Positions 17 to 55,041 of a stretch of 64,000 nucleotides of DNA are shown piece after piece; position 1 is the first letter of the stretch, and each line of letters begins with the position of its first letter. The DNA lies in NCBI GenBank assembly GCA_938004065.1, contig CALKWM010000009.1:3330-67329 (forward strand), given 5' to 3'. The DNA comes from an uncultured bacterium. GTDB lineage: Bacteria; Patescibacteriota; JAHJAL01. The notes under the pieces were generated by a model that was not told the DNA's origin, did no database searches, and saw only the letters and a program-made list of their open reading frames with translations. The translations under genes were made by a program, and so were the position numbers.

Positions 17-2236
17 GTGACTACATATCCGGGAAACCCCATCAATATTGATGATGATTTTGTCGGATCATTTACTGCAGGTGGAGCCGCTCCAGCGATC
101 ACAGTGATAAGCGTAGCCGGAGATTCAACCGCCCCGTATGTCGATACTACCGATGATGGTTATACATTGGTAGAATACACCACCTCTCCTTTAGCGATTG
201 AATGCCATTGGGATACGATTGACACTGATTATGATACTATGGCAAATACATGTTTGTCAGTTACTCAGTGTGTTTTAAATCTTACTGGTGAAGGCGGTAA
301 AACCATTTATATGCGATGTGATGATGGTGCTGGACATAAAGCAACCACTTCTTATGTGCTAAATTACACAATCCAGGTGGCATCTGGACCACCCCCATCG
401 AGCGGTCCCCCAATTATTCCTCCTCCCACGTGTACACCACTATTGCCGGAAACCCGTGTTTTACCATGTCCCACCGGACAAACTGGTATGATAGTGGAAC
501 GCAGGATATCTTCCTGCCCTGGACCGTTGTGGGGATCATGGTCAATTGTGTCAAATACTTGTACAACCACACCTCCGGTTGAACCACCAGTGGAGCCACC
601 GGTAGAACCACCGGTAACTCCTCCCCCACCCAGTACAGAAATTGTTAAACATTATATTCCAATTATCGGGTGGACATTTCCAAATTCACTGGTAACGACT
701 GAGAACGATATCGATAATCAGTCAAACTACTCCGGTTTGGACGGATTGTTTGAAAGTATGATGCTGTTTCCTGAAAATCTCGGCGATATCGATACCTTGA
801 TTAGATCTTACTTTGCTGATTTGGGTATTCGCACTCGCGATGTCAATATCGCAATCGATCAAGACTCCATAAAACGAGGGGATACCGTCTACGTATTATT
901 GCCACCTACCCTTAAGCTTTCCAGTAGCGAAGTTTATCAAGGTGAGGAGATGAATTTCAAAGGCACGTCAGCCCCCAATATCGAGATAAATATTTATATA
1001 TTCAATGACAACGATTATCGATTATATACGGTTTACTCAGATGACTACGGTTTTTGGCAATATGACTTCCCGGTTGATTTACCAACCGGAGAATATTTCG
1101 TTTATGCGGTTGGTGGTAATCAGTATGGGTACATCAGTATCCCAAGTGAAATGCAAAATTTTTCTATCTATAAACAGATTGTACCGAGTGGGATATCGGA
1201 AGTGATTCCCCTGCAAAGATATCAACAGATACTGGAAAGTGACGATGTTTCAGGGTTGATGGAAAATGTTGCGCAGATTAATTTCTGGTTTGCTTTGAGT
1301 TTGATTGGCCTATCTTTGTTCGGGTTGATTTTTGAGATATTTAGCTTTTTCTTGTTTTTATTTAATAACATTACTTCATGGTTAGGTATGGTACCGGCAC
1401 GCGATCCTTGGGGTGTGGTGTATGATAGCGAAACCAAAGAGCCGGTTGATTTGGCGATAGTACGTTTGTACGAAGCAAAAACGAAAAAATATTTACAAAG
1501 CAAGGTAACGGGCAAAGATGGGCGTTATAGTTTTATCGTCAAAAAAGGCAAATACTTAATTCAGGTTACAAAACATAACTATACATTCCCGGCACAAGGT
1601 AATTTTGGTGAGTATGATGGCCGTTACACCAATCTGTATTTTGGTGGTATTTTTGAAATTGGTGATGATAATGAATCGGTTGATTTGAACATCCCGATTA
1701 CTCCGAAAGAATCAATCAGACAGTCAATTTTGATAGAAAAAAAATACCATATAAAAATGTTTCGATACTATCTCGGTAAATTTTCTTTTCCGGTACTTTT
1801 GATCGGTTTTGTTTTGAGTGTACTGGTAATGATAATGTTTCCCGGGTGGTTAAATGCCTTGGTTACCCTTTCATATGTAGTGGCAATAGTATTTCATTTC
1901 TATAAATCGTCAACTTCGCTAAAGCCATGGGGAATGATCTATGACTCCAGAACAGGCGATCCGGTGCCTATGGCAATCGTGAAAATAATCGAGCCGGAGT
2001 ATGAACGAGTTTTGGAAACCAAACTAACTGATTTTGCCGGCCGATTTTCATTTTTAACCGTACCCGGCAAATACAGAATAGTTGTGGAAAAAGACGGATA
2101 CGAATTCCCCACCAATTCTTGCGAATTGGTGGCAAAAGGCAAAAAGATTGACTGGTATTGCGGACAGAAATTCGAAATCAAAGACATGAAACAATCTTTT
2201 ATTGATTTTGATATACCTATTGATTTAAGAAATTAA
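17..2236 (+). CDS. Membrane protein with a Pro-rich tandem repeat and two carboxypeptidase-regulatory-like (CarbopepD_reg) beta-sandwich domains. The frame is open to the window start, so it may be 5' partial
   Basis: 739-aa ORF starting at GTG at 17 with no upstream stop in frame. Carries a PPVEPPVEPPVEPPVTPPPP repeat and two G(V/M)(V/I)YDSxTxxP(V/I)xxAIV...GxDGRYSF segments typical of CarbopepD_reg. Hydrophobic helices lie mid-protein and before the second repeat. Confidence 0.45.
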   Translation: MTTYPGNPINIDDDFVGSFTAGGAAPAITVISVAGDSTAPYVDTTDDGYTLVEYTTSPLAIECHWDTIDTDYDTMANTCLSVTQCVLNLTGEGGKTIYMRCDDGAGHKATTSYVLNYTIQVASGPPPSSGPPIIPPPTCTPLLPETRVLPCPTGQTGMIVERRISSCPGPLWGSWSIVSNTCTTTPPVEPPVEPPVEPPVTPPPPSTEIVKHYIPIIGWTFPNSLVTTENDIDNQSNYSGLDGLFESMMLFPENLGDIDTLIRSYFADLGIRTRDVNIAIDQDSIKRGDTVYVLLPPTLKLSSSEVYQGEEMNFKGTSAPNIEINIYIFNDNDYRLYTVYSDDYGFWQYDFPVDLPTGEYFVYAVGGNQYGYISIPSEMQNFSIYKQIVPSGISEVIPLQRYQQILESDDVSGLMENVAQINFWFALSLIGLSLFGLIFEIFSFFLFLFNNITSWLGMVPARDPWGVVYDSETKEPVDLAIVRLYEAKTKKYLQSKVTGKDGRYSFIVKKGKYLIQVTKHNYTFPAQGNFGEYDGRYTNLYFGGIFEIGDDNESVDLNIPITPKESIRQSILIEKKYHIKMFRYYLGKFSFPVLLIGFVLSVLVMIMFPGWLNALVTLSYVVAIVFHFYKSSTSLKPWGMIYDSRTGDPVPMAIVKIIEPEYERVLETKLTDFAGRFSFLTVPGKYRIVVEKDGYEFPTNSCELVAKGKKIDWYCGQKFEIKDMKQSFIDFDIPIDLRN

Positions 2237-2239
2237 TGA

Positions 2240-2345
2240 GTTGTGCTAATTAGAAAAACAAAATATGGTTTGGATGGATCCCCGATCAAGAAGCGTTTCA
2301 CTTTCTTGTCGAGGATGACAGATAAAAAAATAAACTAGCACAACT
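2240..2345. repeat. Inverted-repeat element copy with terminal inverted repeats GTTGTGCTA(A/G)TT
   Basis: gttgtgctaattag...ggatggatccccgatc...caagaagcgtttcactttcttg hairpin...tcgaggatgacagataaaaaaataaactagcacaac. The ends are reverse complements of each other. Confidence 0.55.
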
Positions 2346-2395
2346 TATAAATTAAAAAAACATATAATAATTCCCCCTTAAAATAGTAAAGGGGA

Positions 2396-2956
2396 TTATT
2401 TTTCCAGATCAATTTTTGGATGCTGACGTTTAAAGAATAAATTTATCAGATAGATGAAAACAATAGCAATAAGCCAGCCAAATAATGATTCCATAAGAGC
2501 AAAATGTAAAATGTAGGACAGCGTGTTTTCCAGTTGAAAATTTAAATGCAGAAACGTAAATGCACAATTATATACCAGAAATGCAAAGAGAAGATAACTA
2601 AAACTTAAGACGTGAGAAACGTGTCTTTTTTTAATATAGAGAATTACTAAAAATAAAATGATTTGCAACAGACCGATAGCCAAGAAATCATTTGCAGAGT
2701 ATAAAAAATTCAGTAGAATGGTCAAAATCAAGATTATCGCTGATTGAGAAAAAGGCAAAGCATAGGTGCCGGCCACCAGATAAGAAAGGGTCAATGGCAG
2801 AACCATGCTTGAAATATTTATATTATATGGAAAAGCGGTTTGGACAAAAAATAGTATCGGGACGAAAAAATACACTAAAAATATTTTCATAAAAATCTTG
2901 GTAAAAAAATAGGCGGAAAAATATTTTCTCCGCCTTTTTTGATAGTTGATGAACAA
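2396..2956 (-). CDS. Polytopic membrane protein, hypothetical
   Basis: 186-aa ORF that is almost entirely hydrophobic helices. No recognisable motif. Confidence 0.4.
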   Translation of the reverse strand: MFINYQKRRRKYFSAYFFTKIFMKIFLVYFFVPILFFVQTAFPYNINISSMVLPLTLSYLVAGTYALPFSQSAIILILTILLNFLYSANDFLAIGLLQIILFLVILYIKKRHVSHVLSFSYLLFAFLVYNCAFTFLHLNFQLENTLSYILHFALMESLFGWLIAIVFIYLINLFFKRQHPKIDLEK

Positions 2957-2970
2957 AAAAAATTAAATTT

Positions 2971-3819
2971 TTATCGAAGACGACCGCTGATTACCTTGAG
3001 GGACTTGCGCTCAACAGACAATTCAGCCGGGGTGCGAGCGATTACTTCATTGTTGGACCAGAAGAAAAGAGGTTTCTCGCTACGAATTTCAAATTCTTGA
3101 AGGTGAAAAAGACTGATGTTTTTTGATTGCATTTCTTTGACATTGCTGTTAAGGGAAAAAAGCACATCACCCGATCCAAGCTGATCACTAAAACCCAGAT
3201 GCAAACATTCATCTATCATGCTTTGGCGGATAGATTCGATGTTGTTGCCAAATGGACGTAAATTGGTAACCACCAAACCGGAAATAGTAGCTTCTACTTG
3301 ATACTGATCGCGAACATTGACCGTGATCTGGTTTTTCTTGTCTTCGTCAATTTTCGGTTTGGAGGATAACAATTTGGAAAAGATTGATTGTTGTTTTATT
3401 TCCGGCGGCATGTCCGGAGATTGATTGGCCAGTAGTTCGGTTATGAAAAATTTATTGTTAATCACTCCGGTATCCATCAGCAATACTCGGCGAGCGGCAA
3501 GAATTTCCAGAGAGTTTTTCCAATTTCCCAATCCAAGTGAGTTTACCAGCAAACTATCCTCCAGGGGCAAGATACCTAGTGCGATTTTTGAATTTACTAA
3601 ATTGATAGCCACTTTATTGGCAAGAACTTCTCCGCCAACGGCAACAATTGTACTAAATCCTTTGTCGATCGCCCCCTTGACTTTATCTTCGACGTCGGCC
3701 AGATTGTCGATAAAATCAAACTCGCCCAGGATGTCAAAACTGACGAGAATTTCCGTAGCTTTTTGTTCGATTTTATCAAATTCTTTGCGTTTGCTATTGT
3801 CAACCAGATAGTAATACAT
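2971..3819 (-). CDS. Diacylglycerol/lipid kinase catalytic-domain-like protein (YegS/BmrU/LCB5-like) with a degenerate GGDGT motif
   Basis: FSTIVAVGGEV...LGILPLEDSLLVNSLGLG...LLMDTG..NNKFFI matches the DAGK_cat layout, but GGDGT is replaced by GGEV. Confidence 0.45.
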   Translation of the reverse strand: MYYYLVDNSKRKEFDKIEQKATEILVSFDILGEFDFIDNLADVEDKVKGAIDKGFSTIVAVGGEVLANKVAINLVNSKIALGILPLEDSLLVNSLGLGNWKNSLEILAARRVLLMDTGVINNKFFITELLANQSPDMPPEIKQQSIFSKLLSSKPKIDEDKKNQITVNVRDQYQVEATISGLVVTNLRPFGNNIESIRQSMIDECLHLGFSDQLGSGDVLFSLNSNVKEMQSKNISLFHLQEFEIRSEKPLFFWSNNEVIARTPAELSVERKSLKVISGRLR

Positions 3820-3833
3820 ATGTTTAGTATTGG

Positions 3834-4199
3834 TTATATTTCGTAAATTGGTTCGTATTGATCGATTTTGGAATCGAGTTTCTCACGTTGCTTTTTTGAT
3901 GTGCCGATAAATGCCGCTCCTTCGTCTATAATTAGACAACTGGAAGTTAGATCGCCCAGTAGTTTAGCGGTTTTGGTTAAGTGAATCTTTTTGGCGGTAA
4001 CTTCACCTTCATGAGTTCCGGACAAATTATAATCAATACATTCTATAACACCTTTTACAACACCTTTATCGTCAATATCAACATTTTTATCGGTATAAAC
4101 CGATCCTTCGATGCGACCGGAAAGGTATATCGAAGCTTGAGTTTTGATTTCTCCCGAGATAGTGGCATTTTGACCAATTAAGATATCCTGCCAATCCAT
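3834..4199 (-). CDS. Bactofilin-family cytoskeletal protein
   Basis: 121 aa with beta-helical repeats of the form ISGEIKTQASIYLSGRIEGSVYT..VDIDDKGVVKGVIEC and a C-terminal ..IDEGAAFIG. Confidence 0.7.
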   Translation of the reverse strand: MDWQDILIGQNATISGEIKTQASIYLSGRIEGSVYTDKNVDIDDKGVVKGVIECIDYNLSGTHEGEVTAKKIHLTKTAKLLGDLTSSCLIIDEGAAFIGTSKKQREKLDSKIDQYEPIYEI

Positions 4200-4350
4200 A
4201 AATTTTTATTTATTTAATTTGGCTTTATTATACTACGCTTGAAGAATTATTCTCAAATATACGGGACAAATATTGACGTAAAGATAATTATAGACAATAT
4301 TGTGATTTTACTGGTATAATCCGTGACGAATCAAAGTATCGGATAATATT

Positions 4351-4674
4351 ATGAAAAAAATCAATTTAAATGTTTTGCTGGCTATCAATTTATTTGTATC
4401 CTGGTTATTGTACCTGTCAAACAATATGAGTTTTTCAGGTTTAAAATGGATAACTTTACTCAGTCTGGCAATTTTTTTGATGAAAAGAACAAAACTCATC
4501 ATCTTGGTTTTGATATTTTTAACACTTTTTTTGCCGATAGTAGCTTATCTTGAGCAGGACTTTTGGATATATTGGGGATATAGTATGTTTATCTTGATGA
4601 TAGTTTTTTGGTTTGGTTTAATGTTTAAATCACATGATAAAGAAGAAATATATCAGGGAAATAGCGGTAAGTAA
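4351..4674 (+). CDS. Small membrane protein, hypothetical
   Basis: 107 aa with three hydrophobic helices. Overlaps the queG start by about 40 nt. Confidence 0.3.
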   Translation: MKKINLNVLLAINLFVSWLLYLSNNMSFSGLKWITLLSLAIFLMKRTKLIILVLIFLTLFLPIVAYLEQDFWIYWGYSMFILMIVFWFGLMFKSHDKEEIYQGNSGK

Positions 4675-10563: not shown

Positions 10564-11979
10564 ATGTTTAAACTATTTATCAAACAAATCATCGAGGGAA
10601 AAACAACAAATCATCCGGTCAAACCGGCAGAAATTATCGATGCCAGATGGTATGACCGATTTGAAAAACTGGGATCTTTTCAAGCATATAAATTTTTTGA
10701 GGGTAACAAGAAATTCCGTGACCAGCAAAGGAAATCTTTCTTAAATATGGATACGAGAAATCCAGTATTTGATTATCCTTTGATCAATCAGGTAGAAATA
10801 CAGATACACAGCCAAGAAGTGATAAAGTTGAATAGAGATATCTCAAATAAAGAGAAAAATCCGATTGTACTGCACACTTATTTGCCCAAGATCGAGGAAA
10901 AACTGGCAGAATTGAATTTGATGAAACTGGCATATAAATTATCTCAAGAACAAAAAAGTGTAAATTCGGAAAAATTGGGGAAGGAATTTCAGATCATTTC
11001 AGAAAAATTGTATGGGAAACCGACAGAAAAATTGTTTGCCCATAGTGTCGCCAAAACCAGAGCAAAAATCAGGTTATTTATCGGTAAAAACGCTCCCACC
11101 GATGCGGCGGCCATGGATTTGCTGGCAGTATTGCCGGAAATCGAAGAAGAGACGTTTTTCAGCGCATTGGAGAAAAATCAATTGGAAAAATATCTGGCCA
11201 GATATTTCCTGATTGATGATGCATTGGAGATGATCAATTTATCTGAGATTGGCGGTATGCTTGGAGCTTCTGAAATAAAAAAGTATTTTGAGAAATTGCT
11301 CTTGAGTATGGGAATCACTGACTGGAAGGTAAAACTAGCAAAAAATTTAATGTCAATTTCTATCGATCATCAAAACAAACAGATAATTATCCCCCGCTGG
11401 CGAAAAATGAATCGTGATAAATTGAGGATGTTGATGGTGCATGAGATAGGGGTTCATGTTCGACGGCGATCAAATGGCGAAAACAGCCCCCTGAAACTTT
11501 TGGGGCTGGGTTTGCAAGGATATGAAACCGGTGAGGAAGGGTTGGCCGGCATTTGTGAAGATATTTTAAAAGAATCATATGATATAACTTTTGGCAGTTT
11601 GGTAGGATATTTGTCAGTGGGGATGGTTTACGGATTGGATGGGGTAAAGCGGGATTTTCGAGATTTATTTGATATATTGCATAAATTTTATCGTTTTAAA
11701 ATTGTCAAAAACTGTGAAAATACCGAGAAGATGGATTTGAACAAAGTGGACCGGAAGGCAAAAAAATTGGCATGGTTTAGAGCTTGCCGGATATTTCGCG
11801 GTAGCGGTGGGGCGATAAAAGGGGTTTGTTTTACCAAGGATATAATCTATTTGAAAGGTCGAATGTGTGTGTGGGACCAAATTCGTAACGAGAGCAAGGA
11901 ACTGTCGAGATTGTTTTGCGGTAAGTACGACCCTTGCAATCCGGAACATGTGCGGATTTTGGATGAGTTGGGGATGTAG
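10564..11979 (+). CDS. DUF1704-like putative metalloprotease (HExxH + QEGLA-type motif)
   Basis: 471 aa. HEIGVHVRR gives an HExxH motif, and GYETGEEGLAGICE resembles the QEGLA motif of the DUF1704/TIGR02421 family. Confidence 0.4.
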   Translation: MFKLFIKQIIEGKTTNHPVKPAEIIDARWYDRFEKLGSFQAYKFFEGNKKFRDQQRKSFLNMDTRNPVFDYPLINQVEIQIHSQEVIKLNRDISNKEKNPIVLHTYLPKIEEKLAELNLMKLAYKLSQEQKSVNSEKLGKEFQIISEKLYGKPTEKLFAHSVAKTRAKIRLFIGKNAPTDAAAMDLLAVLPEIEEETFFSALEKNQLEKYLARYFLIDDALEMINLSEIGGMLGASEIKKYFEKLLLSMGITDWKVKLAKNLMSISIDHQNKQIIIPRWRKMNRDKLRMLMVHEIGVHVRRRSNGENSPLKLLGLGLQGYETGEEGLAGICEDILKESYDITFGSLVGYLSVGMVYGLDGVKRDFRDLFDILHKFYRFKIVKNCENTEKMDLNKVDRKAKKLAWFRACRIFRGSGGAIKGVCFTKDIIYLKGRMCVWDQIRNESKELSRLFCGKYDPCNPEHVRILDELGM

Positions 11980-18452: not shown

Positions 18453-21400
18453 TTGTTCAAATTTAGGTTGCTACCTATGGTCATGGTAGTTTTTTTATTG
18501 ATTTCTACCGGTAACAAATCGGTTGCCGAAGAAGTCAAACTGGATGTTCCTTATCGCAACCAGATCACCAGTTATCCGAATTGGTGGAATAACTGGGCCA
18601 GTTGCGGTTATACCTGCATGATGATGAGCTTGTTGTACGCTGATGCAGTGCCGGAAAGTATGAGCGAATACGCATTGATTGAACAGATGAATAAACACTG
18701 CTCAACAACTTCCGCTGACGGGTCGATGTTTTACAACTGGACAAAAACCGATGATTTTTGCCAACAAGTTTTACCGGATTACAACTTGGATGTCAAATAT
18801 ATCGAGTCGGATTATGAAAACCAAATCAAAGATGAATTAAAAAAAGGCAATCCGGTGATAGTTGGCACGATGATATTTGGTGGATATGGACATGTAATTT
18901 TGATAGTTGGATATCGAGATGACAAATGGCTGGTACACGATCCGTTAAATCGCTGGGGCAAAGAGGTGGAACCGCCGAGCTGGTGGACCGAGGAGGCGGC
19001 ATACTGCGAATACCCGATTGAAAGTTTTTGCTGTTTGTATGGAGTGGTTATCACCAATGATTTTGCACGTAAATATGCAGCAAAAATCGTAGATCAGAGT
19101 CCGTCCGCTATCATTTATGATGAGGAAATGGCAATGCTCTGGGTGCGATATAAAAATACCGGGCGGGAGGATTGGGAGAAAGAAAATATCCACATCGGCA
19201 CAGTCAATCCCAATGATTGTGAATGTATTTTGAAAATTCAAAACCATCCGGAGAGTTATCGCTGGGTGGGAACAAATCGGGTCCAAATGGAACAAGCTGA
19301 AGTTGGCAGTGGTAATGAAGCGTTGTTTGGAATATCGGTATCGACAAATGGATTCAATGTTCCGATAGAAATATGCTTTCGAATGGTTTATGACGATGAA
19401 AATGAGGGGCAGTGGTTTGGACCGGTGGTAAGATGGGTGGTTGACTGCCGGCAAAGTGATATAGAGGAAAATGAAACGACTGATATTTCGTCATTGGCAG
19501 AGGGTGATGAGATCTATTATCATCGTGGTTCGGTGCACAATCATACTACCTGGTCGGATGGCTGCATCAATGTTGAGGGATTGTGCCGACAGGCACAAAA
19601 TGCCGGTTTGGAATACGTGGTAATTTCCGATCACAGTGATTATTTTGATAGTGAGCAAAAATTCCGCTGGTACGTCGATGACATCAATCAGAGCATGCAA
19701 AAAACCGGTCTTTGCGCGGTGGCCGGAATCGAGTATTCAATGCAAAATTACGCCGGACAGGTTTTGGAGGATACGCACGATGGTCGAATTCACATCCTGG
19801 GATTTGGTTACAACAAGGAAAAAGAAACGATAGTGCCACCATTTTTCCCTTGGAGCGAATGGGGGCCAAAGACAACAATCAAGCAACTGGTTGACTGGCA
19901 TTATCAGCATGGATTGCCGATAATAGTTTGTCATCCGGTGATTAGAGGCAATGATGGTTATAGTAGTGCTGAATTGATTAGAAATTGTCAATTTTGCGAT
20001 CCAACTCACGTAAGTACGGTTGAGATATTTGATATCGGCATGGACACCACAACCTGGGGATCAATTGCCGGTAAACTAATGTGGCCATTGATGGAAGATT
20101 TGGAAGGTATGAAGTTGTACAAGGATTACCTGTTTCCGGCCGGATGCGGAGTATCGGCTTGCAGTGATTATCATGGAGTGCCTAGCGATATGCAAAAACC
20201 GGAGGTTTTGGGCAATGAATTCTATCTGACGATTGACGATAATGGCAATGGTTGGATCGATCCGGGATGGGGAGAAAAATTCAAAATCAAAGTGGATCAA
20301 CAGTATATGCGTCTACTGCAATCAATGGACAGAGCCAAAACGACTTATGCCAGTGATTTTAACAGTGTAACAGTAAACGAAGTGGTGGCCGGTTTTGTCA
20401 ATAAACGCACTATCGCTTCTCGATATCATGAAAATTTAAATTTTCTAAAAATTAATGGTGCAGATTGGGCGCCGGGAATTTGGGCCAACAATGTAAAATG
20501 CGAAAATGATGTAAAAATTGAATTTCAAGTCCAGTTCCATGGAGAAACCGGAGTGTTGGATAAATTGAAAGAGGTGGGAATTGTTAGAAATGGAAAAACT
20601 GTTGCTGATCAAGCAGTAAAGTTGGACGATCAAGACCGACTAAATTTTTGTTATATCGATACGGATCTACCAAACGGAATTCACAAGTATTTTGTGGTAA
20701 TTTCCGGATTGGAGGCCAACGATCGGGCACAGGAAAGAATTATCACCAGTCCGATTTATGTCGAAGTAACTGATAAAAATTACAATGCGGAAGAGCCGGA
20801 GATATTGGAAGATGGAACTATGAGCATCCCGATATTTCGGGGTTTGATTCATTTGGGTGATTCAAACTATACCACGCCTTTAAATGTTGGTTTTGCCAAA
20901 AAATACGATGAGGGCAAGGTTGGCAGCTGGTATTTTGATCTGGATTTGGCAGAACTAGCCAATTACGATCAGGCGGTTTTAACCATGACGGTCAGGGGAG
21001 CGGAAAAACTGGATACGAGTTATTATGGTAACCCGATTGATATCAATGGAGTTCAAATTGCGGAATGTCTGGTTAAGGATGGGAATCTGGAAAACAATGG
21101 GAAATATCATTGTTATGTTGTCCCACGGGATTTGTTGTTGAATGGAAAAAATATCCTAATGATCCGATCGATGTCACATTTGATGGGTGGCCAAAGAATT
21201 GATTTTGACGACTTCGAGCTATCAGATATTAAAATACTTTTTACCGGCAATGTTGGAACCAATTTTACCGATGGAGCGATTCTGTCGGCCAAGATCAATG
21301 ATGAGCCGGCAAAATATGAATTGGCGGATAAAAAAGGATTCAGTGAGCAAGAGAAAGAAAAATCACAGGAAATGTATCAGGAATTTGTCCAAAAGGGTGG

Positions 21401-22079
21401 AAAAATTTATCCAAAGGATGATCCGGCTTATAATCAATTGGCACAGATCATGTCACCGATTGCCAGAAAGATGAATTTGTTTGAGCGATATGACGGTGAA
21501 GATTTTAAAGTAGCGATATTTGCCTCTCCGACTCTGGATCCGATTGTTTTGCCGGATGGGACTTTGTTGGTACCGGATGGACTGCTGAAATTGTACCATG
21601 AGGAATTACCCGAGTCATTTTTGTTTCCGATTTTGTCGCAAATGATTCAAGCCGATAAAGGAATTACTTATGAACAAACCAATCGAACTGATTGGTCGAT
21701 GGTTTTGGGTACAATTGGCCTGGTGGCGTCTCAATATACCGGTAGCGGAGGGGAGATTGTTCAAGCTATTGGTAGTGGACTGCTATTGGTGGCGGTGATC
21801 AATCTCAAGGTGGAGAGGGAGGATTATTTTATTTCCGACGCTTATGCCTTGGAAATGCTAAATCGATTGGACTTGGACTGTGATGATGCATTTAGTTTTG
21901 TGGACGCGATTAACACGATGCAGGTTAAAAACCCAAAAAAAATTGAACGATTTTATCTGTACGCACCCGAAGCAACCGAGCGTATGAAGGCATTGAGGTA
22001 TTATTTTTTACTGAAAGAGTGTTATTCTCTTCCCGTAAAACCGGAGGAAATTGATTGGGGAGAAGCGCTGGAAAAATAA
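18453..22079 (+). CDS. Giant secreted multidomain protein with an N-terminal C39-like papain-fold peptidase domain and a PHP-family phosphoesterase domain
   Basis: 1208 aa. Signal peptide MFKFRLLPMVMVVFLLISTG. The Cys motif ASCGYTCMMMSLLYA plus His in GGYGHVILIVGYRDDKWLVHDP give the Cys/His/Asp arrangement of C39-like peptidases. HRGSVHNHTTWSDGCINVEGL..YVVISDHSDY is a PHP-domain metal-binding signature. The C-terminal ~600 aa are uncharacterised. Confidence 0.5.
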   Translation: MFKFRLLPMVMVVFLLISTGNKSVAEEVKLDVPYRNQITSYPNWWNNWASCGYTCMMMSLLYADAVPESMSEYALIEQMNKHCSTTSADGSMFYNWTKTDDFCQQVLPDYNLDVKYIESDYENQIKDELKKGNPVIVGTMIFGGYGHVILIVGYRDDKWLVHDPLNRWGKEVEPPSWWTEEAAYCEYPIESFCCLYGVVITNDFARKYAAKIVDQSPSAIIYDEEMAMLWVRYKNTGREDWEKENIHIGTVNPNDCECILKIQNHPESYRWVGTNRVQMEQAEVGSGNEALFGISVSTNGFNVPIEICFRMVYDDENEGQWFGPVVRWVVDCRQSDIEENETTDISSLAEGDEIYYHRGSVHNHTTWSDGCINVEGLCRQAQNAGLEYVVISDHSDYFDSEQKFRWYVDDINQSMQKTGLCAVAGIEYSMQNYAGQVLEDTHDGRIHILGFGYNKEKETIVPPFFPWSEWGPKTTIKQLVDWHYQHGLPIIVCHPVIRGNDGYSSAELIRNCQFCDPTHVSTVEIFDIGMDTTTWGSIAGKLMWPLMEDLEGMKLYKDYLFPAGCGVSACSDYHGVPSDMQKPEVLGNEFYLTIDDNGNGWIDPGWGEKFKIKVDQQYMRLLQSMDRAKTTYASDFNSVTVNEVVAGFVNKRTIASRYHENLNFLKINGADWAPGIWANNVKCENDVKIEFQVQFHGETGVLDKLKEVGIVRNGKTVADQAVKLDDQDRLNFCYIDTDLPNGIHKYFVVISGLEANDRAQERIITSPIYVEVTDKNYNAEEPEILEDGTMSIPIFRGLIHLGDSNYTTPLNVGFAKKYDEGKVGSWYFDLDLAELANYDQAVLTMTVRGAEKLDTSYYGNPIDINGVQIAECLVKDGNLENNGKYHCYVVPRDLLLNGKNILMIRSMSHLMGGQRIDFDDFELSDIKILFTGNVGTNFTDGAILSAKINDEPAKYELADKKGFSEQEKEKSQEMYQEFVQKGGKIYPKDDPAYNQLAQIMSPIARKMNLFERYDGEDFKVAIFASPTLDPIVLPDGTLLVPDGLLKLYHEELPESFLFPILSQMIQADKGITYEQTNRTDWSMVLGTIGLVASQYTGSGGEIVQAIGSGLLLVAVINLKVEREDYFISDAYALEMLNRLDLDCDDAFSFVDAINTMQVKNPKKIERFYLYAPEATERMKALRYYFLLKECYSLPVKPEEIDWGEALEK

Positions 22080-23239: not shown

Positions 23240-23323
23240 GGGCGAGTGGCGGAACTGGTAGACGCAAGGGACTTAAAATCCCTCGGTAGCAATACTGTGC
23301 GAGTTCGATTCTCGCCTCGCCCA
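23240..23323 (+). tRNA. tRNA-Leu (anticodon UAA), class II with a long variable arm
   Basis: Acceptor stem GGGCGAG/CTCGCCC, discriminator A, anticodon arm AGGGA-CTTAAAA-TCCCT (U33, anticodon TAA, A37), a 15-nt variable arm and T arm GCGAG-TTCGATT-CTCGC. CCA is not encoded. Confidence 0.85.
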
Positions 23324-48652: not shown

Positions 48653-50167
48653 ATGTTGGCAAAAATTTTTTCAGGATCGGTAGTCGGTCTGGATGGCAAG
48701 TTAATCGAGGTCGAAGTGGATATCGGCCAAGGTAAACCGTCTTTTTTCATGGTCGGACTGCCGGCCAAAGAGGTGGAAGAGTCCGAGGACAGGATAAAAG
48801 CGGCAATTTTAAATGCCGGATTTATCCTGCCAAATCGACGGGTAACGGTCAATCTGGCGCCGGCCAATATCCGAAAAGAAGGGTCGGGATTTGATTTGCC
48901 GATTGCTATTGGAGTATTGAAAGCTGATCGACAAATTGAGATTGCGGTGTCTTCGGCAATATTTGCCGGGGAGTTATCGTTAAGTGGCGAATTGCGTCCG
49001 ATCAGCGGAGTGTTATCCCTGGCAATCATGGCCAAAGAAAACGGCTTCAAAGAAATATTCGTCCCCAAATCAAATGCCCGAGAAGCCAGTTTAATCGATG
49101 GTGTTGAAGTATATGGAGTAAATGATTTAAGTCAGTTAATACTACATTTATTGGGAGAGAAAAAAATCACGCCGACCAAAGCTTTCAGTGACGAAAAAAT
49201 GGTCGAAATAAAAAGCCAGTTTGACATGTCATATATCAAGGGACAAAATCAAGCCAAACGGGCGCTCTCAATCGCTGCCGCCGGAGGACACAATGTGATA
49301 TTTTCCGGACCGCCCGGTAGTGGGAAAACTTTGTTAGCCAGAACACTGCCGACGATACTGCCGCCACTGACCAAGGAAGAAATGCTGGAGGTAACCCGCG
49401 TTCATAGCGTGGCCGGTTTACTGACAGCGGAAAATGCGTTGATTACTCAAAGACCTTTTCGTAAACCACACCATACATCCAGCTCGGCGGCTTTGGTCGG
49501 GGGAGGAAAAATACCGCGACCGGGCGAAATCAGTCTTTCTCATCGGGGAGTTTTGTTTCTCGATGAATTTCCGGAATTTAGCCGAATCACTTTGGAAGCA
49601 CTAAGACAACCTTTGGAAGACGGGATTATCACCGTCAGTCGAGCGGCGGGAAGTTTGCAATTTCCGGCGTCGATCATACTGGTGGCGGCGATGAATCCAT
49701 GTCCTTGCGGGTACGCCTCTGATCCGGAACGGGAGTGTATTTGCACACCGATAAAAATAATCAATTACCAGAAAAAAATTTCCGGACCACTTTTGGATCG
49801 GATTGATTTGCACATCGAGGTTCCGCGGCTGAAGTATGAAAAACTTAAATCGCAAGAAAAATCACCCACTTCAATCGAGATTCGGGAAATTGTAAAGAAG
49901 GCACGCCAAGTTCAATCGAACAGGTATGCGGATTCACCGACGGTGACCAATTCCGAGATGTCGGCCAGAGAAGTTGAAAATTACTGCAAATTGGAGAAAG
50001 GAGCGGAAGATTTGATCAAAAAGGCGGTGGACCAGATGAACTTATCGGCCCGTAGCTATCATCGGATATTGAAGGTCGGTCGTACTATTGCCGATTTGGA
50101 GGAAGTGGACACGATAACCGCCTCCCACATCGCCGAGGCGTTGCAATATCGAACGAGAGTGGAGTGA
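48653..50167 (+). CDS. yifB: YifB/ComM-family Mg-chelatase-like AAA+ ATPase
   Basis: N-terminal Lon/ChlI domain, Walker A GPPGSGKT, Walker B VLFLDEFPEF, Cys cluster CPCG..C and a C-terminal Mg_chelatase_C domain. Confidence 0.9.
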   Translation: MLAKIFSGSVVGLDGKLIEVEVDIGQGKPSFFMVGLPAKEVEESEDRIKAAILNAGFILPNRRVTVNLAPANIRKEGSGFDLPIAIGVLKADRQIEIAVSSAIFAGELSLSGELRPISGVLSLAIMAKENGFKEIFVPKSNAREASLIDGVEVYGVNDLSQLILHLLGEKKITPTKAFSDEKMVEIKSQFDMSYIKGQNQAKRALSIAAAGGHNVIFSGPPGSGKTLLARTLPTILPPLTKEEMLEVTRVHSVAGLLTAENALITQRPFRKPHHTSSSAALVGGGKIPRPGEISLSHRGVLFLDEFPEFSRITLEALRQPLEDGIITVSRAAGSLQFPASIILVAAMNPCPCGYASDPERECICTPIKIINYQKKISGPLLDRIDLHIEVPRLKYEKLKSQEKSPTSIEIREIVKKARQVQSNRYADSPTVTNSEMSAREVENYCKLEKGAEDLIKKAVDQMNLSARSYHRILKVGRTIADLEEVDTITASHIAEALQYRTRVE

Positions 50168-50248: not shown

Positions 50249-50557
50249 CTAAGTTTGATAATTTTTTTTATTTATTTCCAACATCTCATCGAAATTATCC
50301 TCCAGTTCGGATTTATTTTTCTTTTTGTGTCCACATTTCACGCATTCGTGAGTGATTGCATACTCATCTTTTTTCTTTTCCACCCAAACCGGTTTCATGA
50401 GACCACCGCAATTTGCTTCCCTATCACCCGGATTGACGTCAACATGCTTGGAGTATAAACAAAACGGGCAATGGTTGGTGTAACCGTTGCCTTGGACAAA
50501 TTGGCCACAATTTTCACAAATAAAATCTTCGATTTGTCGTTGGAATTTTTTGGACAT
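50249..50557 (-). CDS. RNHCP-domain protein
   Basis: FICENCGQFVQGNGYTNHCPFCLYSKH...THECVKCGH matches PF12647 (RNHCP). The start is moved to MSKKFQRQ because the longer ORF's first 17 codons are encoded by the adjacent inverted-repeat element. Confidence 0.6.
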   Translation of the reverse strand: MSKKFQRQIEDFICENCGQFVQGNGYTNHCPFCLYSKHVDVNPGDREANCGGLMKPVWVEKKKDEYAITHECVKCGHKKKNKSELEDNFDEMLEINKKNYQT

Positions 50558-50584
50558 AAAAAAATAATATCTAAATCCCCGAAG

Positions 50585-50700
50585 TCTCATCGATCCCGAT
50601 ATTAACATTCACAAAAATTTATAATCGGGATGGCAGATGCTATCGTTCCTCGCTTTTGACTCCAAAAATGATAGATTAGAGAAATAATTAGTGCTATTCA
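50585..50700. repeat. Inverted-repeat element copy (ATCGATCCCGAT ... ATCGGGATGGCAGATG ... AATAATTAGTGCTATTC)
   Basis: Inverted arms atcccgat/atcgggat. The right-arm consensus is degenerated by transitions. Confidence 0.45.
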
Positions 50701-50716
50701 TCGATTGAGAAAAATT

Positions 50717-51757
50717 CTATTGACCAACATCCCCGCTTTCGATAGATTTTAATAGTTTCTTGGCCTTATCTTTGTGTTCTTTTGTAGTTAATTCATGTTC
50801 CTTGATACCGTGTTTATCTTGAAATTGGTCAATATGACTTTTAAATTCGGGAATTTCGCGGGCGATTTCAATAGCTTCGTGATCGGATGCGGTTACCCCC
50901 AAAAGTGGTTTTAATTCCTCCAAGTCTTTGGATGTGCGCTCTTCTCTATTAGTTATGACGGTATCCAACATCAGATCGGCCACTCTGGCTAAATTTTTGT
51001 TTTTCTTGACAAAAACACCTGTTTTGTAAACTGTTTTATAAATTCGCGGAGAGACTTTCAATTTACGTAATAGTGCGGCAGAGCGAGTCATCAGTTTGCA
51101 GGCCTTGACTCCTTTGGAAGCGATCAGACCGTAGCCGGTCGCATCAAGTGCCAAAAAAATACTACCTTCGATAACTTTATATACCTTTTGTTGTTTAGTT
51201 AATGGGTTGCCATACATATCTTTGCCCACCACTCCTTCGGAGATATCGGAGATCGGCCCGGCAAACGGAACCAGTTTTAGACCGGTGATAAAAACAGATT
51301 TTCCGATTGAATCGCTTTTTTCTTTGGATTCGCGGTATTTTTTATCAATTTCCCTATTTTGTTCCCGGAGCCATTCTACGGATTTTTCTTCCAATGATTT
51401 TTTTACCAATTCTCTGGCTTTGGCCAAGTCGGGACAGTTTTTAATACTTTTGGTGAGAATATTTTTAAGAGAATCGATTTTTGTCTGATACCTTTTGGAA
51501 ACCGGCATATCAGGGCTAGGAAATATTACATCCAAATCTTTTTCTTGGAAACCATCGGCAAGCACTTTATCAATTTCATGATCGGTCAAAGAAGGAGTGT
51601 CGGTGATAGCGGTTTTATCGATATTGTAGTCTTGCTCGGGAGAGTGCTCCTGTAGCAATACATCTTCGACGGCTTCTTCGTAGGCTTTACCTTGATTCTG
51701 TAAATAATCCTTGGACTCACTTGTTTGGTCTGATTTTTGTTCGAAGTTTTTGTTCAT
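50717..51757 (-). CDS. Hypothetical protein, possibly with a pre-toxin TG (PT-TG)-like segment
   Basis: 346 aa. VPFAGPISDISEGVVGKDMYGNPLTKQQK resembles the PT-TG core as recalled from memory (weak evidence). Confidence 0.3.
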   Translation of the reverse strand: MNKNFEQKSDQTSESKDYLQNQGKAYEEAVEDVLLQEHSPEQDYNIDKTAITDTPSLTDHEIDKVLADGFQEKDLDVIFPSPDMPVSKRYQTKIDSLKNILTKSIKNCPDLAKARELVKKSLEEKSVEWLREQNREIDKKYRESKEKSDSIGKSVFITGLKLVPFAGPISDISEGVVGKDMYGNPLTKQQKVYKVIEGSIFLALDATGYGLIASKGVKACKLMTRSAALLRKLKVSPRIYKTVYKTGVFVKKNKNLARVADLMLDTVITNREERTSKDLEELKPLLGVTASDHEAIEIAREIPEFKSHIDQFQDKHGIKEHELTTKEHKDKAKKLLKSIESGDVGQ

Positions 51758-51837: not shown

Positions 51838-51903
51838 ATCCTGAATCGCTCGAAACGCTCGTAAAACTCGCTTTCGGGTTCAGGATGACAAAATAACTTC
51901 CTC
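51838..51903. repeat. Partial inverted-repeat element copy overlapping the 3' end of the Clp ATPase gene
   Basis: agatcctgaatcgc...gggttcaggatgacaaaataacttcc. The GGATGACAAAATAA part encodes the last codons (VILSS*) of 51880-54552. Confidence 0.4.
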
Positions 51904-54552
51904 CTCCCCCACTATCTGCATATGCATACCTTCTTTTAATTCACCGGACAGCATTTTGTCGGCGACGACGTTTTTGACCTTGTCTTGGAGAGTGCGGTAG
52001 AGGGCACGGGCCCCGAATTCGGCATTGTAACCCTCGGCGATAAACTGATCCATGGCACTATCGGCAACATCGATGGTGATTTTTTTGTCAGCGAGAGATT
52101 TGTTAATTTTGCCAATCATGATTTGGGCAATTTGTTTGATCTCGTCCGTAGTTAGAGGTTTGAACATGATCACACCATCAAAGCGGTTTAAAAATTCCGG
52201 GCGATAGTAGTTTTTTAATTCTTCCATCAATCGGCTTTCGATCTGTTCAACCGGTAAATTATTTTTGACACCTTCTTGGATGTTGATGGCACCAGCGTTG
52301 GATGTGGCGATAATGATAGCATTATTGAATTTTACTTCCCGCCCCATGCTGTCTTTGATTTTACCCTCATCTAAAACTTGGAGAAACAAGTTTAGAATGT
52401 CCGGATGGGCTTTTTCCAATTCGTCCAACAATACCACGGTAAATGGATTTCTTTTGACGGATTCGGTCAGATACCCCCTCTCTTCGAATTCAGCGCTACC
52501 GGGAGGGGCGCCGATGATTTTTTTGATATCGCCTTTTTCCTGGTATTCACTCATATCGAGACGAACCATGTTGTTCTCATCGGCAAAGTATTCATGCGCC
52601 AAAGCTTTGGTTAATTCCGTTTTGCCGACGCCGGTGGGACCGACAAATAGAAACGAGGCGATCGGTTTGGATTTGTCTTTCAAGCCGGCGCGGGCACGTT
52701 TGATGGCGTCGGCAACTTGTTTAACAGCGATATCCTGCCCGATAACTCGTTTATGTAATTCCGTCTCCAGGTTCAACAATTTGGTAGATTCTGCACCGGT
52801 AACTTGTTCGAGAGGAATATTGGTTTTTTCCTGCATCAGAGCCACAACATCGGCTTTGGTGAGATAAAATCTGTTTTGATTTTTCACGGTTATGGCACAT
52901 TCCTGCAAAACATCGAGGGCTTTACCGGGCAATTTACGATCGGCGATAAAGTCAGCCGAGAGTTCGACAGCGGATTTGACAGCCGGCAGTGTAACCAACA
53001 CATCGGACGAGTTTTCCACGCGATAGGAAATTGATTTGATAACTTCGATTGATTGCGGGATATCCATTTCGTCGATTTCGATCTTGGTCATTTCCGAGAT
53101 GAGTTGTTCATAAGTGGAGATATATTTGGAATATCCTTCGATCGTAGTGGAACCGATAAATTGGATATTGTATTGATTTAAGGTTTCGGTCAAGATACTG
53201 ATGATATCCATGGCGCCGCCGGATGAGGTACGAACGCCGGCCAAGAGATGAAGATCGTCGATAAAGAGGATAATGTTGCCGGCGGAAATGACTTCGTTTA
53301 GTGCTCCCATAAAGTAACGCTCTCCCCCCTGCCCGCCGGAAAATATCTGATTGATGTTTAAGGCAATCAATCTTTTGTCTTTGAGTCGGTCAGGGACGTC
53401 TTCGGCGACCATTTTGTAAGCCAAGCCGTTGACGATAGTGGCTTTACCGACGCCGGCTTCGCCTACCAAGATTAAATTGTTTTGATTCGCTTTTTCGAGA
53501 ATATTGAAAGCGTTAGTGAGCTCTTTGTCTCGTCCGATCAATCTTTCCAAACGTTCGTATTTGGCAAACAAGGTTAAATCCCGACCAAAACTATCCAGAA
53601 TCGGAGTTGGGATAGCTGTCCAAGCACGATTCATGTGTCCTTCCGGCTTGAAGCGAGACACTTCTCGGTAGCGATGAATTTTGGCAATTTGTTGATTGAT
53701 ATTTTCTTGCCAGGTACAAATTTCCAAAATATTTTCGAGACTGATCTTGTACTCGGCAAAAGCATTGGCAATTTCCGGATGAATTTTAACAATCGCTTCG
53801 AGAATATGGTTGAAAGAAACTTTTTCGGAATGGTTATCGGAAGCAATCAGATAGGCACTGATCAATATCCGTTCTATTGTACCGGGAACAAAATTGGTTT
53901 GACTGCTGATTGAATTTTCAATAATATATCTTGTAAATTCTTGAAAATCATTGGGACTGACTTCCATTTTAACAATCAGCCAGTTAAACTCATTGCTGTT
54001 TAACAGCTCATCAAAAAATACCCATTGATTGGGGGCGAGGTGGTATTGGGCGGATTTAATGTAGGTATTATTGATAATTCCGACTAGTTCATCATCAAAT
54101 GACTTGGAGATATCGATATTTTCTTGAGTCAAGTTGTCGGAATCGGAGGAAATATGGTGAATTGGTGGTTTTTTCGGTTCTTGATAAAAGTTGATAAAAG
54201 AAGCAACCAGAAGCGTTCCCAATAGTATCCACCAAATCAGGGGGAGCGGAGCGGAGTAAATAAAAACACCCAGAACGGACTGGTCGTTGGACATGTAGTA
54301 CAAGGCGGACAGAACAAAAATCAATATTACGAGAGTTAGGTTGAGAAAGAAAATCGCTTTTTTAACCAAATTGAAAGTACGAATTGTATCCGGGCCGGTG
54401 ATTTTGGCCGGATTTGTCGGCAGTCCCCAAAACAATTTGGTGGAACCAATCTGGCCATAGAATTTCGCCCCATGACAAGAGGGACAGGCGGGGTTTTCGG
54501 ACGCTTGACAGTCGGGACAGGGAGTAATTTGTAATTGGTCAAATTTAGTCAT
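51880..54552 (-). CDS. ClpC/ClpA-like two-NBD AAA+ unfoldase with an N-terminal Cys4 zinc ribbon and two predicted TM helices (membrane-anchored)
   Basis: 890 aa. CPDCQASENPACPSCHG, then TM helices AIFFLNLTLVILIFVLSALYY and LPLIWWILLGTLLVASFINFY. NBD1 Walker A GEAGVGKAT and Walker B IILFIDDLH. NBD2 Walker A GPTGVGKTELTKALA and Walker B VVLLDELEKAH. Sensor/Arg fingers and a C-terminal ClpB_D2-small domain. Confidence 0.85.
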   Translation of the reverse strand: MTKFDQLQITPCPDCQASENPACPSCHGAKFYGQIGSTKLFWGLPTNPAKITGPDTIRTFNLVKKAIFFLNLTLVILIFVLSALYYMSNDQSVLGVFIYSAPLPLIWWILLGTLLVASFINFYQEPKKPPIHHISSDSDNLTQENIDISKSFDDELVGIINNTYIKSAQYHLAPNQWVFFDELLNSNEFNWLIVKMEVSPNDFQEFTRYIIENSISSQTNFVPGTIERILISAYLIASDNHSEKVSFNHILEAIVKIHPEIANAFAEYKISLENILEICTWQENINQQIAKIHRYREVSRFKPEGHMNRAWTAIPTPILDSFGRDLTLFAKYERLERLIGRDKELTNAFNILEKANQNNLILVGEAGVGKATIVNGLAYKMVAEDVPDRLKDKRLIALNINQIFSGGQGGERYFMGALNEVISAGNIILFIDDLHLLAGVRTSSGGAMDIISILTETLNQYNIQFIGSTTIEGYSKYISTYEQLISEMTKIEIDEMDIPQSIEVIKSISYRVENSSDVLVTLPAVKSAVELSADFIADRKLPGKALDVLQECAITVKNQNRFYLTKADVVALMQEKTNIPLEQVTGAESTKLLNLETELHKRVIGQDIAVKQVADAIKRARAGLKDKSKPIASFLFVGPTGVGKTELTKALAHEYFADENNMVRLDMSEYQEKGDIKKIIGAPPGSAEFEERGYLTESVKRNPFTVVLLDELEKAHPDILNLFLQVLDEGKIKDSMGREVKFNNAIIIATSNAGAINIQEGVKNNLPVEQIESRLMEELKNYYRPEFLNRFDGVIMFKPLTTDEIKQIAQIMIGKINKSLADKKITIDVADSAMDQFIAEGYNAEFGARALYRTLQDKVKNVVADKMLSGELKEGMHMQIVGEEEVILSS

Positions 54553-54729: not shown

Positions 54730-55041
54730 TTACATGGTTACGATGATATATCCGATTTTAAATATGATCACCACCGGCAATACCAGCCACAATAACATCA
54801 AAACCGCCAGGATTATCAATAATATTAATTGGGTAAATAGTCCCAGGAGTATGCGGCCGGTGCGGATCAAAAAACCGATGGCGCGGCCTTGATAGGTGTA
54901 GTCCTGATACAGTGGTTCCCCGATGTGTTTGATCATCATCGGAATATCGAAAGTGCCCGATATGAGTTGAAAGATATCGTTAAAAGCCGCGTATATCTGT
55001 CGCGTTTGGAACATATAGTACCATTTGAAAAATGTGATCAT
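54730..55041 (-). CDS. Small membrane protein, hypothetical
   Basis: 103 aa. C-terminal TM helices LLGLFTQLILLIILAVLMLLWLVLPVVIIF. Lies 8 nt downstream of the giant gene. Confidence 0.3.
   Translation of the reverse strand: MITFFKWYYMFQTRQIYAAFNDIFQLISGTFDIPMMIKHIGEPLYQDYTYQGRAIGFLIRTGRILLGLFTQLILLIILAVLMLLWLVLPVVIIFKIGYIIVTM

Follow-up and report, generated by a model that had tools for sequence, protein, structure and literature searches.

A membrane-anchored Clp/Hsp100 subfamily of Patescibacteria with a degenerate first AAA+ module and a conserved small membrane partner

A contig of an uncultured bacterium of the Patescibacteriota (GenBank assembly GCA_938004065.1, contig CALKWM010000009.1, positions 3,330 to 67,329 of the forward strand; this whole stretch of 64,000 nucleotides (nt) is called the window below) encodes a Clp/Hsp100 ATPase with a two-helix membrane anchor and, directly upstream of it, a small membrane protein. 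The ATPase belongs to an undescribed subfamily of class-I Clp/Hsp100 proteins, in which architecture, motif state and partner are all new for the Hsp100 fold. From the N-terminus it consists of a Cys4 knuckle, a membrane hairpin, a Clp_N-like domain, a linker, a degenerate first AAA+ module (D1) and, with no middle domain (M-domain) in between, a catalytically complete second module (D2). The two proteins probably form a new two-part membrane machine and not an ordinary unfoldase. The reading that we consider moderately likely is a remodeller tethered to the membrane and driven by D2, which acts together with the small partner but without ClpP and stands nearer to a Torsin with its cofactor than to a threading unfoldase.

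The preliminary description of this DNA, made from its letters and open reading frames (ORFs), had proposed a Clp/Hsp100 protein with an N-terminal Cys4 element and a two-helix membrane anchor. Pfam matches, cysteine positions, the Kyte-Doolittle and Hessa scales and an AlphaFold2 (AF2) model all bear this out. The same description had regarded a membrane-anchored Clp as unusual, in agreement with full-text literature searches, which yielded no account of this family or of any bacterial Hsp100 with a membrane anchor, and nothing relevant on degenerate Hsp100 motifs.

Family, fold and membrane hairpin

A full-length search with the Clp protein returns one near-identical protein, 13 proteins at 55–75% identity and about 50 further homologues at 33–40% identity, the latter with 97–99% coverage and lengths of 880–930 amino acids (aa). 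Searching with the N-terminal 320 aa alone (phmmer) gives 73 clusters at 50% identity, again mostly 880–930 aa long and aligned from about residue 5. In their source records these proteins are annotated as 'ATP-dependent Clp protease ATP-binding subunit', 'AAA family ATPase' or 'hypothetical protein'. The named sources are Patescibacteria, Magasanikbacteria, Komeilibacteria and Parcubacteria; all informative labels belong to the Candidate Phyla Radiation (CPR), and the family is apparently confined to the CPR/Patescibacteria. Motif counts given below refer to a 111-member sample of the family, spanning 33–100% identity to the window protein, with 11 ClpC-type sequences as references. Gene context was read at the window and 17 other loci, 11 of them reached by contig look-up and six by a genome scan with the close-clade alignment; nine of the loci are close-clade and nine distant. 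Two contigs carry other labels, 'uncultured Gammaproteobacteria' (L009) and 'Candidatus Udaeobacter sp.' (L017), and both hold the CPR-type gene pair. The label of L017 is most likely mis-assigned, through binning or taxonomy, because the locus is syntenic with Magasanikbacteria loci. At L014 a canonical soluble Hsp100 of 885 aa with Clp_N and NBD_SMAX1 matches (1840-4497, minus strand) divergently adjoins the pair. The membrane Clp is therefore an additional paralogue and not the housekeeping disaggregase.

The reading frame of the window protein is complete (Table 1). An in-frame stop immediately precedes its ATG, which makes an upstream extension impossible; the preliminary description was right that no earlier in-frame start could remove the hydrophobic helices. 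The start is also conserved, since homologues at 55–75% identity align from about residue 5. Pfam places AAA_2 (PF07724) at residues 629–792 (E 5.5e-57), ClpB_D2-small (PF10431) at 800–879 (E 3.1e-21) and AAA_lid_9 (PF17871) at 499–575 within D1, on which other AAA matches are weaker. Tandem AAA+ modules with an AAA_2-type D2 followed by ClpB_D2-small are the mark of class-I Clp/Hsp100 proteins (HCLR clade), and this is the arrangement found. Sequence matches in the PDB to ClpB, ClpC and ClpA range from E 1e-139 to 1e-114, the best being Thermus thermophilus ClpB, Staphylococcus aureus and Bacillus subtilis ClpC and Escherichia coli ClpA. None of the NCBIfam equivalog cut-offs is reached, as the scores for ClpB (TIGR03346, 581 vs 1232 bits) and ClpA (TIGR02639, 526 vs 993 bits) show.

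The AF2 model, built on a 60-sequence alignment, has a predicted local distance difference test score (pLDDT) of 83.8 and a predicted template modelling score of 0.74. In this model a small β-rich element at the N-terminus is followed by two helices, an all-helical domain and two AAA+ modules. Its top Foldseek matches are ClpC, ClpC1 and ClpB (probability 1.0), and about 800–830 columns of the model align with full-length ClpC chains. The 'Clp N-like repeats' of the preliminary description stand in part: the Clp_N family PF02861 has no significant Pfam match in the window protein, but it is listed for most homologues, including P0010 at 57% identity, and the model is all-helical over residues 144–299.

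Between this domain and D1 lies a family-specific linker, residues 301–320, the most conserved stretch of the protein apart from the D2 motifs. Over this linker the close clade is 88% identical and the distant family 53%, whereas the flanking N-domain has only 16–36% identity. It is disordered in the model, with pLDDT below 50 at residues 304–310, and is a candidate interaction motif.

Cysteines occur in the window Clp only at positions 12, 15, 23, 26, 279 and 552, and the first four form CPDC-x7-CPSC. The Cys4 motif is present in 84 of the 111 family members and in none of the 11 canonical ClpC sequences. In distant members the element reads CxxCxGxG-x(6-7)-CxxCxG. There the DnaJ cysteine-rich family (PF00684, DnaJ_CXXCXGXG) is the top Pfam match in seven of eight proteins and second behind Anti-TRAP in the eighth; BSD2_CRD and Anti-TRAP also match the element. 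All of these PF00684 matches (E 2e-5 to 6e-3) lie below the gathering score, the best of the eight reaching 25 bits (E 2e-5) vs a threshold of 32.7 bits, and the Cys4 element of the window protein itself has no significant Pfam match. With two motifs and one zinc centre, against the four CxxCxGxG repeats and two centres of the DnaJ domain, the element resembles that domain without being a member of it. The knuckle is probably cytoplasmic and ancestrally one DnaJ-type zinc centre.

The hydrophobic N-terminal segment that follows is shared by all 111 family members, while none of the 11 canonical ClpC sequences has one. Kyte-Doolittle profiles (19-residue windows) peak at 2.72 over residues 66–84 and at 2.0 over residues ~93–123, and do not exceed 1.5 elsewhere in the protein. 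On the Hessa scale the apparent insertion free energy (ΔGapp) is -3.1 kcal/mol for transmembrane helix 1 (TM1) and ~0 kcal/mol for transmembrane helix 2 (TM2); it is at least +5.5 kcal/mol in the remainder of the protein and at least +5.8 kcal/mol in the 11 soluble ClpC controls. The AF2 model has helices at 54–88 and 102–122 with pLDDT of about 90. Charges flanking the hairpin (+4/-1 before TM1, 0/-1 in the loop, +2/-2 after TM2) fit an N-in/C-in arrangement, which is the sole topology with a cytoplasmic ATPase as well as a cytoplasmic Cys4 site.

A degenerate first ring and a second ring without its pore-loop tyrosine

The D1 module is degenerate. In the window protein its Walker A reads GEAGVGKA and its Walker B ILFIDD. 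Family-wide, the Walker A Thr/Ser is kept in 40 and the Lys in 94 of the 111 members, and the catalytic Glu of Walker B is kept in none (Asn in 58, Asp in 39). The arginine-finger pair, RR in 11/11 canonical ClpC sequences, is SE in the window protein, and an Arg is present there in at most eight members. The KYRGEFE pore loop is replaced by a loop without that tyrosine, which is absent in 111/111; the window D1 reads SGGQGGERYF.

The D2 module is catalytically intact, with the motifs GPTGVGKT, VVLLDE, TSN, RPEFLNR and GAR in the window protein. Walker A Lys and Thr, Walker B Asp and Glu, the sensor-1 Asn, the arginine finger (R790) and the sensor-2 Arg are each present in 111/111 members. The loss of so many canonical motifs from D1 and from both pore loops could suggest a decaying, non-functional paralogue or an annotation artefact. 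The invariance of these seven D2 catalytic positions across 33–100% identity argues against this, as do a reading frame that is intact at every locus, a confident AF2 model and a partner family of thousands of clusters (described below). Decay has almost no chance of being the explanation, and is effectively refuted by the conservation pattern already.

Aligned without gaps, the D2 pore loop GAPPGYVGYEEGG corresponds to GAPPGSAEFEERG of the close clade; the window protein has GSAE in place of GYVG, and GYVG occurs in 0/111. A Tyr stands at the aligned position in 4/111, and in the distant clade the loop is 4–5 residues shorter. A functional unfoldase is characterised by aromatic pore loops in both D1 and D2 and by the catalytic competence of both modules, and the family shows neither feature. 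The word 'unfoldase' in the preliminary description is thus doubtful, with a D1 that lacks the Walker B Glu, the arginine fingers and the pore-loop Tyr, and a D2 whose GYVG tyrosine is lost family-wide.

A ClpP-docking loop would be expected as an IGF or LGF tripeptide after the second nucleotide-binding domain (NBD2), where the preliminary description had pointed for it. The pattern [ILVM]G[FLM] has no match anywhere in the window Clp. The segment from sensor-1 to RPEF is 31–32 aa long in 106/111 members (27–33 overall), shorter than in 10/11 references (37–40 aa), all ten of which have either a ClpP-type loop or a longer insert; the remaining reference, P0117, has 32 aa. No family member has a loop for docking ClpP. 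The segment is gapless against T. thermophilus ClpB and lacks the 7-aa insertion of S. aureus ClpC ('FAGFGG'). 'VGF/IGF' tripeptides near residue 870 of distant members were considered as ClpP loops and rejected, being part of the xGFDPxxGAR sensor-2 motif and away from the place of the loop.

The spacing between the D1 'LP' and D2 'IP' anchors is 39–44 residues in the family, compared with 100–102 in ClpC and 149–165 in ClpB-like references, and residues 318–881 align with ClpA 168–734 in a single stretch. Of the 'ClpC/ClpA-like' short linker between the two nucleotide-binding domains that had been proposed, the ClpA half holds, as there is no M-domain; the linker is shorter than that of ClpC.

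These features set the family apart from each of the soluble Clp types that it resembles. ClpA has the same order of N-domain, D1 and D2 without an M-domain, but it is soluble, has an active D1 and D2, KYRG-type and GYVG loops and a ClpP-docking IGL loop, none of which is found here. ClpB/Hsp104 gives the best sequence match (T. thermophilus ClpB, 1qvr, E 2.6e-139), is gapless over D2 and likewise has no ClpP loop. Its long coiled-coil M-domain, set into the small subdomain of D1 (ClpB residues 417–518), has no counterpart here, and therefore no Hsp70/DnaK coupling element is present; the dead D1, the tyrosine-less pore loops and the membrane anchor of the family are further differences. ClpC and ClpE structures are strong matches, but both proteins are soluble, with an adaptor-binding M-domain of about 60 aa, a VGF/AGF ClpP loop and canonical Walker and pore-loop motifs; loop and M-domain are both absent here.

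The likenesses nevertheless raise the option of a conventional ClpA/ClpC/ClpE-type unfoldase that is merely tethered to the membrane and feeds membrane or secreted substrates to ClpP, an FtsH-like device made from Clp parts. It would be consistent with the class-I Clp fold and with ClpC-ClpP complexes as the best structural matches. ClpE is also known for an N-terminal zinc-binding element, a zinc finger, ahead of its two AAA+ modules, and a ClpE structure matches at E 1.7e-126. Some CPR bacteria encode clpP and clpB (bioRxiv 10.1101/2022.03.25.485537). Against it stand the missing ClpP tripeptide and a loop region 6–8 residues shorter than in ClpC, the absence of GYVG and KYRG with their tyrosines in 111/111, a D1 without its catalytic Glu and arginine fingers, and NCBIfam scores far under the equivalog cut-offs, so that this option is very improbable.

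The small membrane partner and a tethered remodeller

Immediately 5' of the Clp gene, a homologous ORF of 103–128 aa is found in 18/18 loci (20–83% identity). It often overlaps the Clp start by 4–13 nt or stops 2–10 nt before it, and 177 nt separate the two genes in the window. This partner is a real conserved neighbour, overlooked in the preliminary description. In the window it has the motifs F..WYY and EPLYQDY..GR.IGF.IR and a hydrophobic C-terminal helix with W..LP. A hidden Markov model (HMM) made from 13 copies recovers four others that were kept out of it (E 3e-30 to 3e-11). Searching with the single sequence finds only six close relatives; the profile extends this to 2,743 clusters (90% identity), every one named 'hypothetical' and without a Pfam domain. 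The taxon-specific cluster names are CPR with one exception, and a few read only 'bacterium' or 'uncultured bacterium'. The L017 locus was reached from a partner labelled 'Udaeobacter' alone, and there too the Clp gene is immediately downstream. The pairing is also visible in adjacent locus tags (A3J93_04350/04355 and COV55_01660/01665).

The partner is modelled with a pLDDT of 92. Its first helix, residues 2–31, is amphipathic and non-spanning (Hessa +11); it is followed by the conserved EPLYQDY..GR loop and then by a 53-residue helix whose C-terminal part is strongly hydrophobic (Hessa -5.1). No fold match was found in the PDB (best E 4.5), and none in Pfam, NCBIfam or PADLOC.

Table 1. Features of the membrane Clp locus, in window coordinates
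Feature	Coordinates	Strand	Basis
Membrane-anchored Clp/Hsp100 paralogue, 890 aa + stop	51880..54552	-	complete ORF, ATG start
Cys4 zinc knuckle, aa 12-26, degenerate single DnaJ-type CxxCxGxG zinc centre	54475..54519	-	cysteine positions
Transmembrane helix 1, aa ~64-88	54289..54363	-	Kyte-Doolittle, Hessa, AF2
Transmembrane helix 2, aa ~95-123, with family-conserved FW...Y..Y(R/Q) motif	54184..54270	-	Kyte-Doolittle, Hessa, AF2, alignment
All-helical N-domain, Clp_N-like, aa 144-299	53656..54123	-	AF2 secondary structure
Family-specific N-D1 linker, aa 301-320, KPxGxMNRAWTAxPTPILD, candidate interaction motif	53593..53652	-	alignment
D1 AAA+ module, aa 321-560, degenerate	52873..53592	-	motif alignment, family statistics
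D2 AAA+ module and D2-small domain, aa 561-890, catalytically intact	51883..52872	-	Pfam, motif alignment
Conserved partner gene, 103-aa helical-hairpin membrane protein	54730..55041	-	upstream of Clp in 18/18 loci, HMM, AF2
Giant 1369-aa ORF, not a conserved component, possible clade-specific client	55049..59158	-	ends 7 nt before partner gene

In the remodeller that we favour, the Clp would form a hexamer tethered at the inner face of the membrane, its N-domain/D1 side toward the bilayer. FtsH and Msp1 likewise direct their substrate-entry face toward the bilayer. Like NSF-D2 or PEX1/6-D1, the D1 ring would not hydrolyse ATP but serve as a scaffold or in assembly, leaving D2 as the only motor. 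The small protein may be a stoichiometric membrane subunit or an adaptor, probably touching the transmembrane hairpin, and its conserved cytoplasmic loop may touch the N-domain or the conserved linker. Such a machine would work without ClpP. Processive threading seems unlikely because the gripping tyrosines are missing, and a membrane-proximal client would most likely be remodelled, released or gated by an ATP-driven conformational change. By analogy, this action resembles that of Torsins with their membrane cofactors.

Torsins are Clp/Hsp100-like, membrane-associated ATPases whose pore loops have no aromatic residue and which need membrane cofactors (PMC5425593). With LAP1 or LULL1, at the endoplasmic reticulum and nuclear envelope of eukaryotes, they present an Hsp100-D2-like ATPase, an N-terminal hydrophobic segment, pore loops without aromatics and a membrane-anchored partner, all of which recur here. 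A Torsin has one AAA+ module, receives its arginine finger from the cofactor and resides in the lumen of the endoplasmic reticulum, whereas the Clp family has two modules (one of them dead), its own D2 arginine finger in 111/111 and an ATPase that must be cytoplasmic. The partner differs from LAP1/LULL1 in being a hairpin of about 100 aa without an AAA-like fold. The Pfam Torsin match to the window Clp is only E 5e-4, below cut-off.

Other AAA+ proteins share single features. FtsH, archaeal LonB, Msp1/ATAD1 and Bcs1 are hexameric rings held at the membrane by N-terminal or inserted transmembrane helices; each has one ring, of the classical or Lon-clade AAA+ type, and aromatic pore loops, and none is an Hsp100. 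FtsH and LonB are furthermore fused to proteases. The matches listed for the window Clp (the best 25 of 47 in Pfam and the best 25 of 48 in NCBIfam) include no peptidase domain, and AAA_2 and ClpB_D2-small occupy the protein up to residue 879 of 890. NSF-D2 and PEX1/PEX6-D1 offer a precedent for a ring that is a non-hydrolysing structural or assembly scaffold, and in plant SMAX1/D53-type proteins the Hsp100 fold is re-used without unfoldase motifs. These proteins belong to other clades and have other cellular roles, and in none of them does a membrane hairpin occur together with a zinc knuckle and a dedicated small membrane partner.

Several points weigh against a tethered, ClpP-independent remodeller. 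TM2 taken alone is marginal on the Hessa scale, at the value given above. The close clade retains a Phe two residues downstream in the D2 loop (GSAEF) and some aromatic occurs in the D2-loop region of 27/111 members; non-aromatic pore loops could still grip some substrates. Co-transcription of partner and Clp in the window is assumed, and promoters and terminators scanned across the window operon occur at chance level. The orientation of the hexamer and the contact between Clp and partner are drawn solely from gene linkage and topology. No clpP was found in the window and 16 loci (327 kb), a search whose scope is below genome level.

Neighbouring genes and what the family may mean

The partner gene is preceded in the window by a giant ORF, which the preliminary description had offered as a possible partner of the Clp. 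That proposal does not survive comparison of the loci. A tblastn comparison of the loci finds a homologue of the window giant only at L004. L001, with a 75% identical Clp and synteny in other respects, lacks the giant gene. The window giant has a GC content of ~30%, compared with ~38–41% nearby, and this together with the indel relative to L001 suggests that the gene is a secondary insertion. Pfam, NCBIfam, PADLOC and the PDB sequences offer no match to the giant protein, and it contains neither a signal peptide nor a transmembrane segment. By eye, its C-terminus DCLLANWDAPLN...RIDNGGS may resemble the catalytic loop of PI-kinases or protein kinases; there is no PDB sequence match to it at E <=1.

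Soluble giants of 1369–1573 aa, without signal peptide or transmembrane segment, stand directly 5' of the partner in five of the nine close-clade loci (the window, L004, L002, L005 and L007). They end 7–15 nt before it, or their stop overlaps the partner start (L005, L007). They fall into at least three families without detectable homology by phmmer, hmmsearch or hhalign. No upstream giant is found at L001, L006, L009 or any of the nine distant loci. With a homologue only at L004 and upstream giants from unrelated families, the giant protein was rejected as a conserved partner, although it may be a client within its clade. The unrelated L002 giant at the same position has M48-peptidase-like and UbiB/ABC1 kinase-like regions. 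L005 (607-9562) and L007 (569-9568) each have two consecutive giants (~1450 and ~1535 aa) 5' of the pair, with no domain matches; they are unrelated to the window giant, and the stop of the second ORF is the one that overlaps the partner start. Other giant ORFs are common in these genomes, for example A2M-like ones in L002 and L008.

In the case of Plasmodium, the translocon of exported proteins (PTEX) couples an Hsp100 to a membrane-embedded assembly (HSP101, PTEX150, EXP2), and HSP101 (6e10/6e11) is among the sequence matches of the window Clp. A similar export or insertion motor is conceivable here, in which the 12 transmembrane helices of the hexamer, together with those of the partner, would form a conduit coaxial with the AAA+ channel for giant signal-less proteins. 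The soluble, signal-less giants at those five close-clade loci and their at least three unrelated families, which look like variable cargo, are in line with this, and CPR episymbionts must deliver proteins to their hosts. The HSP101 of PTEX, however, is soluble, docks on a separate pore protein and has canonical pore-loop tyrosines and two active rings, whereas the Clp family has no aromatic pore loops for threading. The absence of giants from L001, L006, L009 and the distant loci, their general abundance in these genomes (as in L002 and L008) and the signs of secondary insertion in the window further make such a motor quite unlikely.

The neighbours of the Clp pair otherwise differ by lineage. 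At L003, L010, L013 and L017, in Magasanikbacteria-like genomes, the pair lies inside the division and cell wall (dcw) cluster, in the order mraZ, rsmH, a 99–119 aa ORF, partner, Clp and mraY, and at L012 mraY is near the pair. The dcw position held here by the pair is occupied in model bacteria by ftsI, murE and murF. This linkage could point to a cell-envelope or division factor that remodels or assembles membrane proteins of the divisome or the lipid-II pathway. However, L003, L010 and L017 share long-range synteny and so represent roughly one lineage, and there is no dcw linkage in the window, in the other close-clade loci or at L011, L014, L015 and L016. Such an envelope or division role is improbable on this evidence.

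A known anti-phage defence system was considered and rejected: PADLOC gave only generic Clp-D2 homology (PDC-M37B, DolB), with no match for the partner, for the giant ORF or for the genes downstream. Directly 3' of the Clp gene, a 346-aa ORF (50717-51757, minus strand) has no family match, a Gly-rich hydrophobic stretch LKLVPFAGPISDISEGVVG, and homologues only at L001 (66%) and L004 (52%). It is followed by an RNHCP-domain zinc protein (50249-50608, minus strand) and a YifB/ComM-type Mg-chelatase-like AAA+ protein (48653-50167, plus strand), both syntenic in L001 and L004.

Elsewhere in the window, a 471-aa ORF (10564-11979, plus strand) matches Pfam MATCAP (PF08014, microtubule-associated tyrosine carboxypeptidase) at E 4e-26, which is unexpected in a bacterium. 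A 1208-aa ORF (18453-22079, plus strand) has an N-terminal Peptidase_C39_2 domain and a weak PHP-domain match and is mostly unannotated. A tRNA (23240-23323, plus strand) is the sole Rfam match at gathering score in the 64 kb. Other large ORFs (leucyl- and isoleucyl-tRNA synthetases LeuRS and IleRS, SecA, D-Ala-D-Ala carboxypeptidase, DUF2207 and Big_1 surface proteins) give the stretch the look of an ordinary CPR chromosome.

Hsp100/Clp proteins are the textbook example of soluble, double-ring threading machines that grip their substrates with tyrosines. The family described here departs from that pattern in five ways: it has a membrane anchor, a dead ring, no pore-loop tyrosine, no loop for docking ClpP and an obligate small membrane partner. 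Much of bacterial diversity falls within the CPR/Patescibacteria, which live as reduced episymbionts and whose lineage-specific membrane machinery is mostly uncharacterised. A conserved two-gene, ATP-driven membrane module provides a concrete, clonable entry point into that machinery.

A more far-reaching reading, which is unlikely, takes the pair as a CPR-specific membrane machine without a counterpart in model bacteria, either a ClpP-independent exporter, inserter or activator of giant signal-less proteins with a single motor or an essential remodeller of the envelope or division apparatus. If true, such a giant-protein export or envelope-remodelling machine would constitute a new functional class of Hsp100 without aromatic pore loops. 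The family could also reveal by what means an Hsp100 ring does its work when its pore loops have no aromatic residues, a question that it shares with the Torsins.

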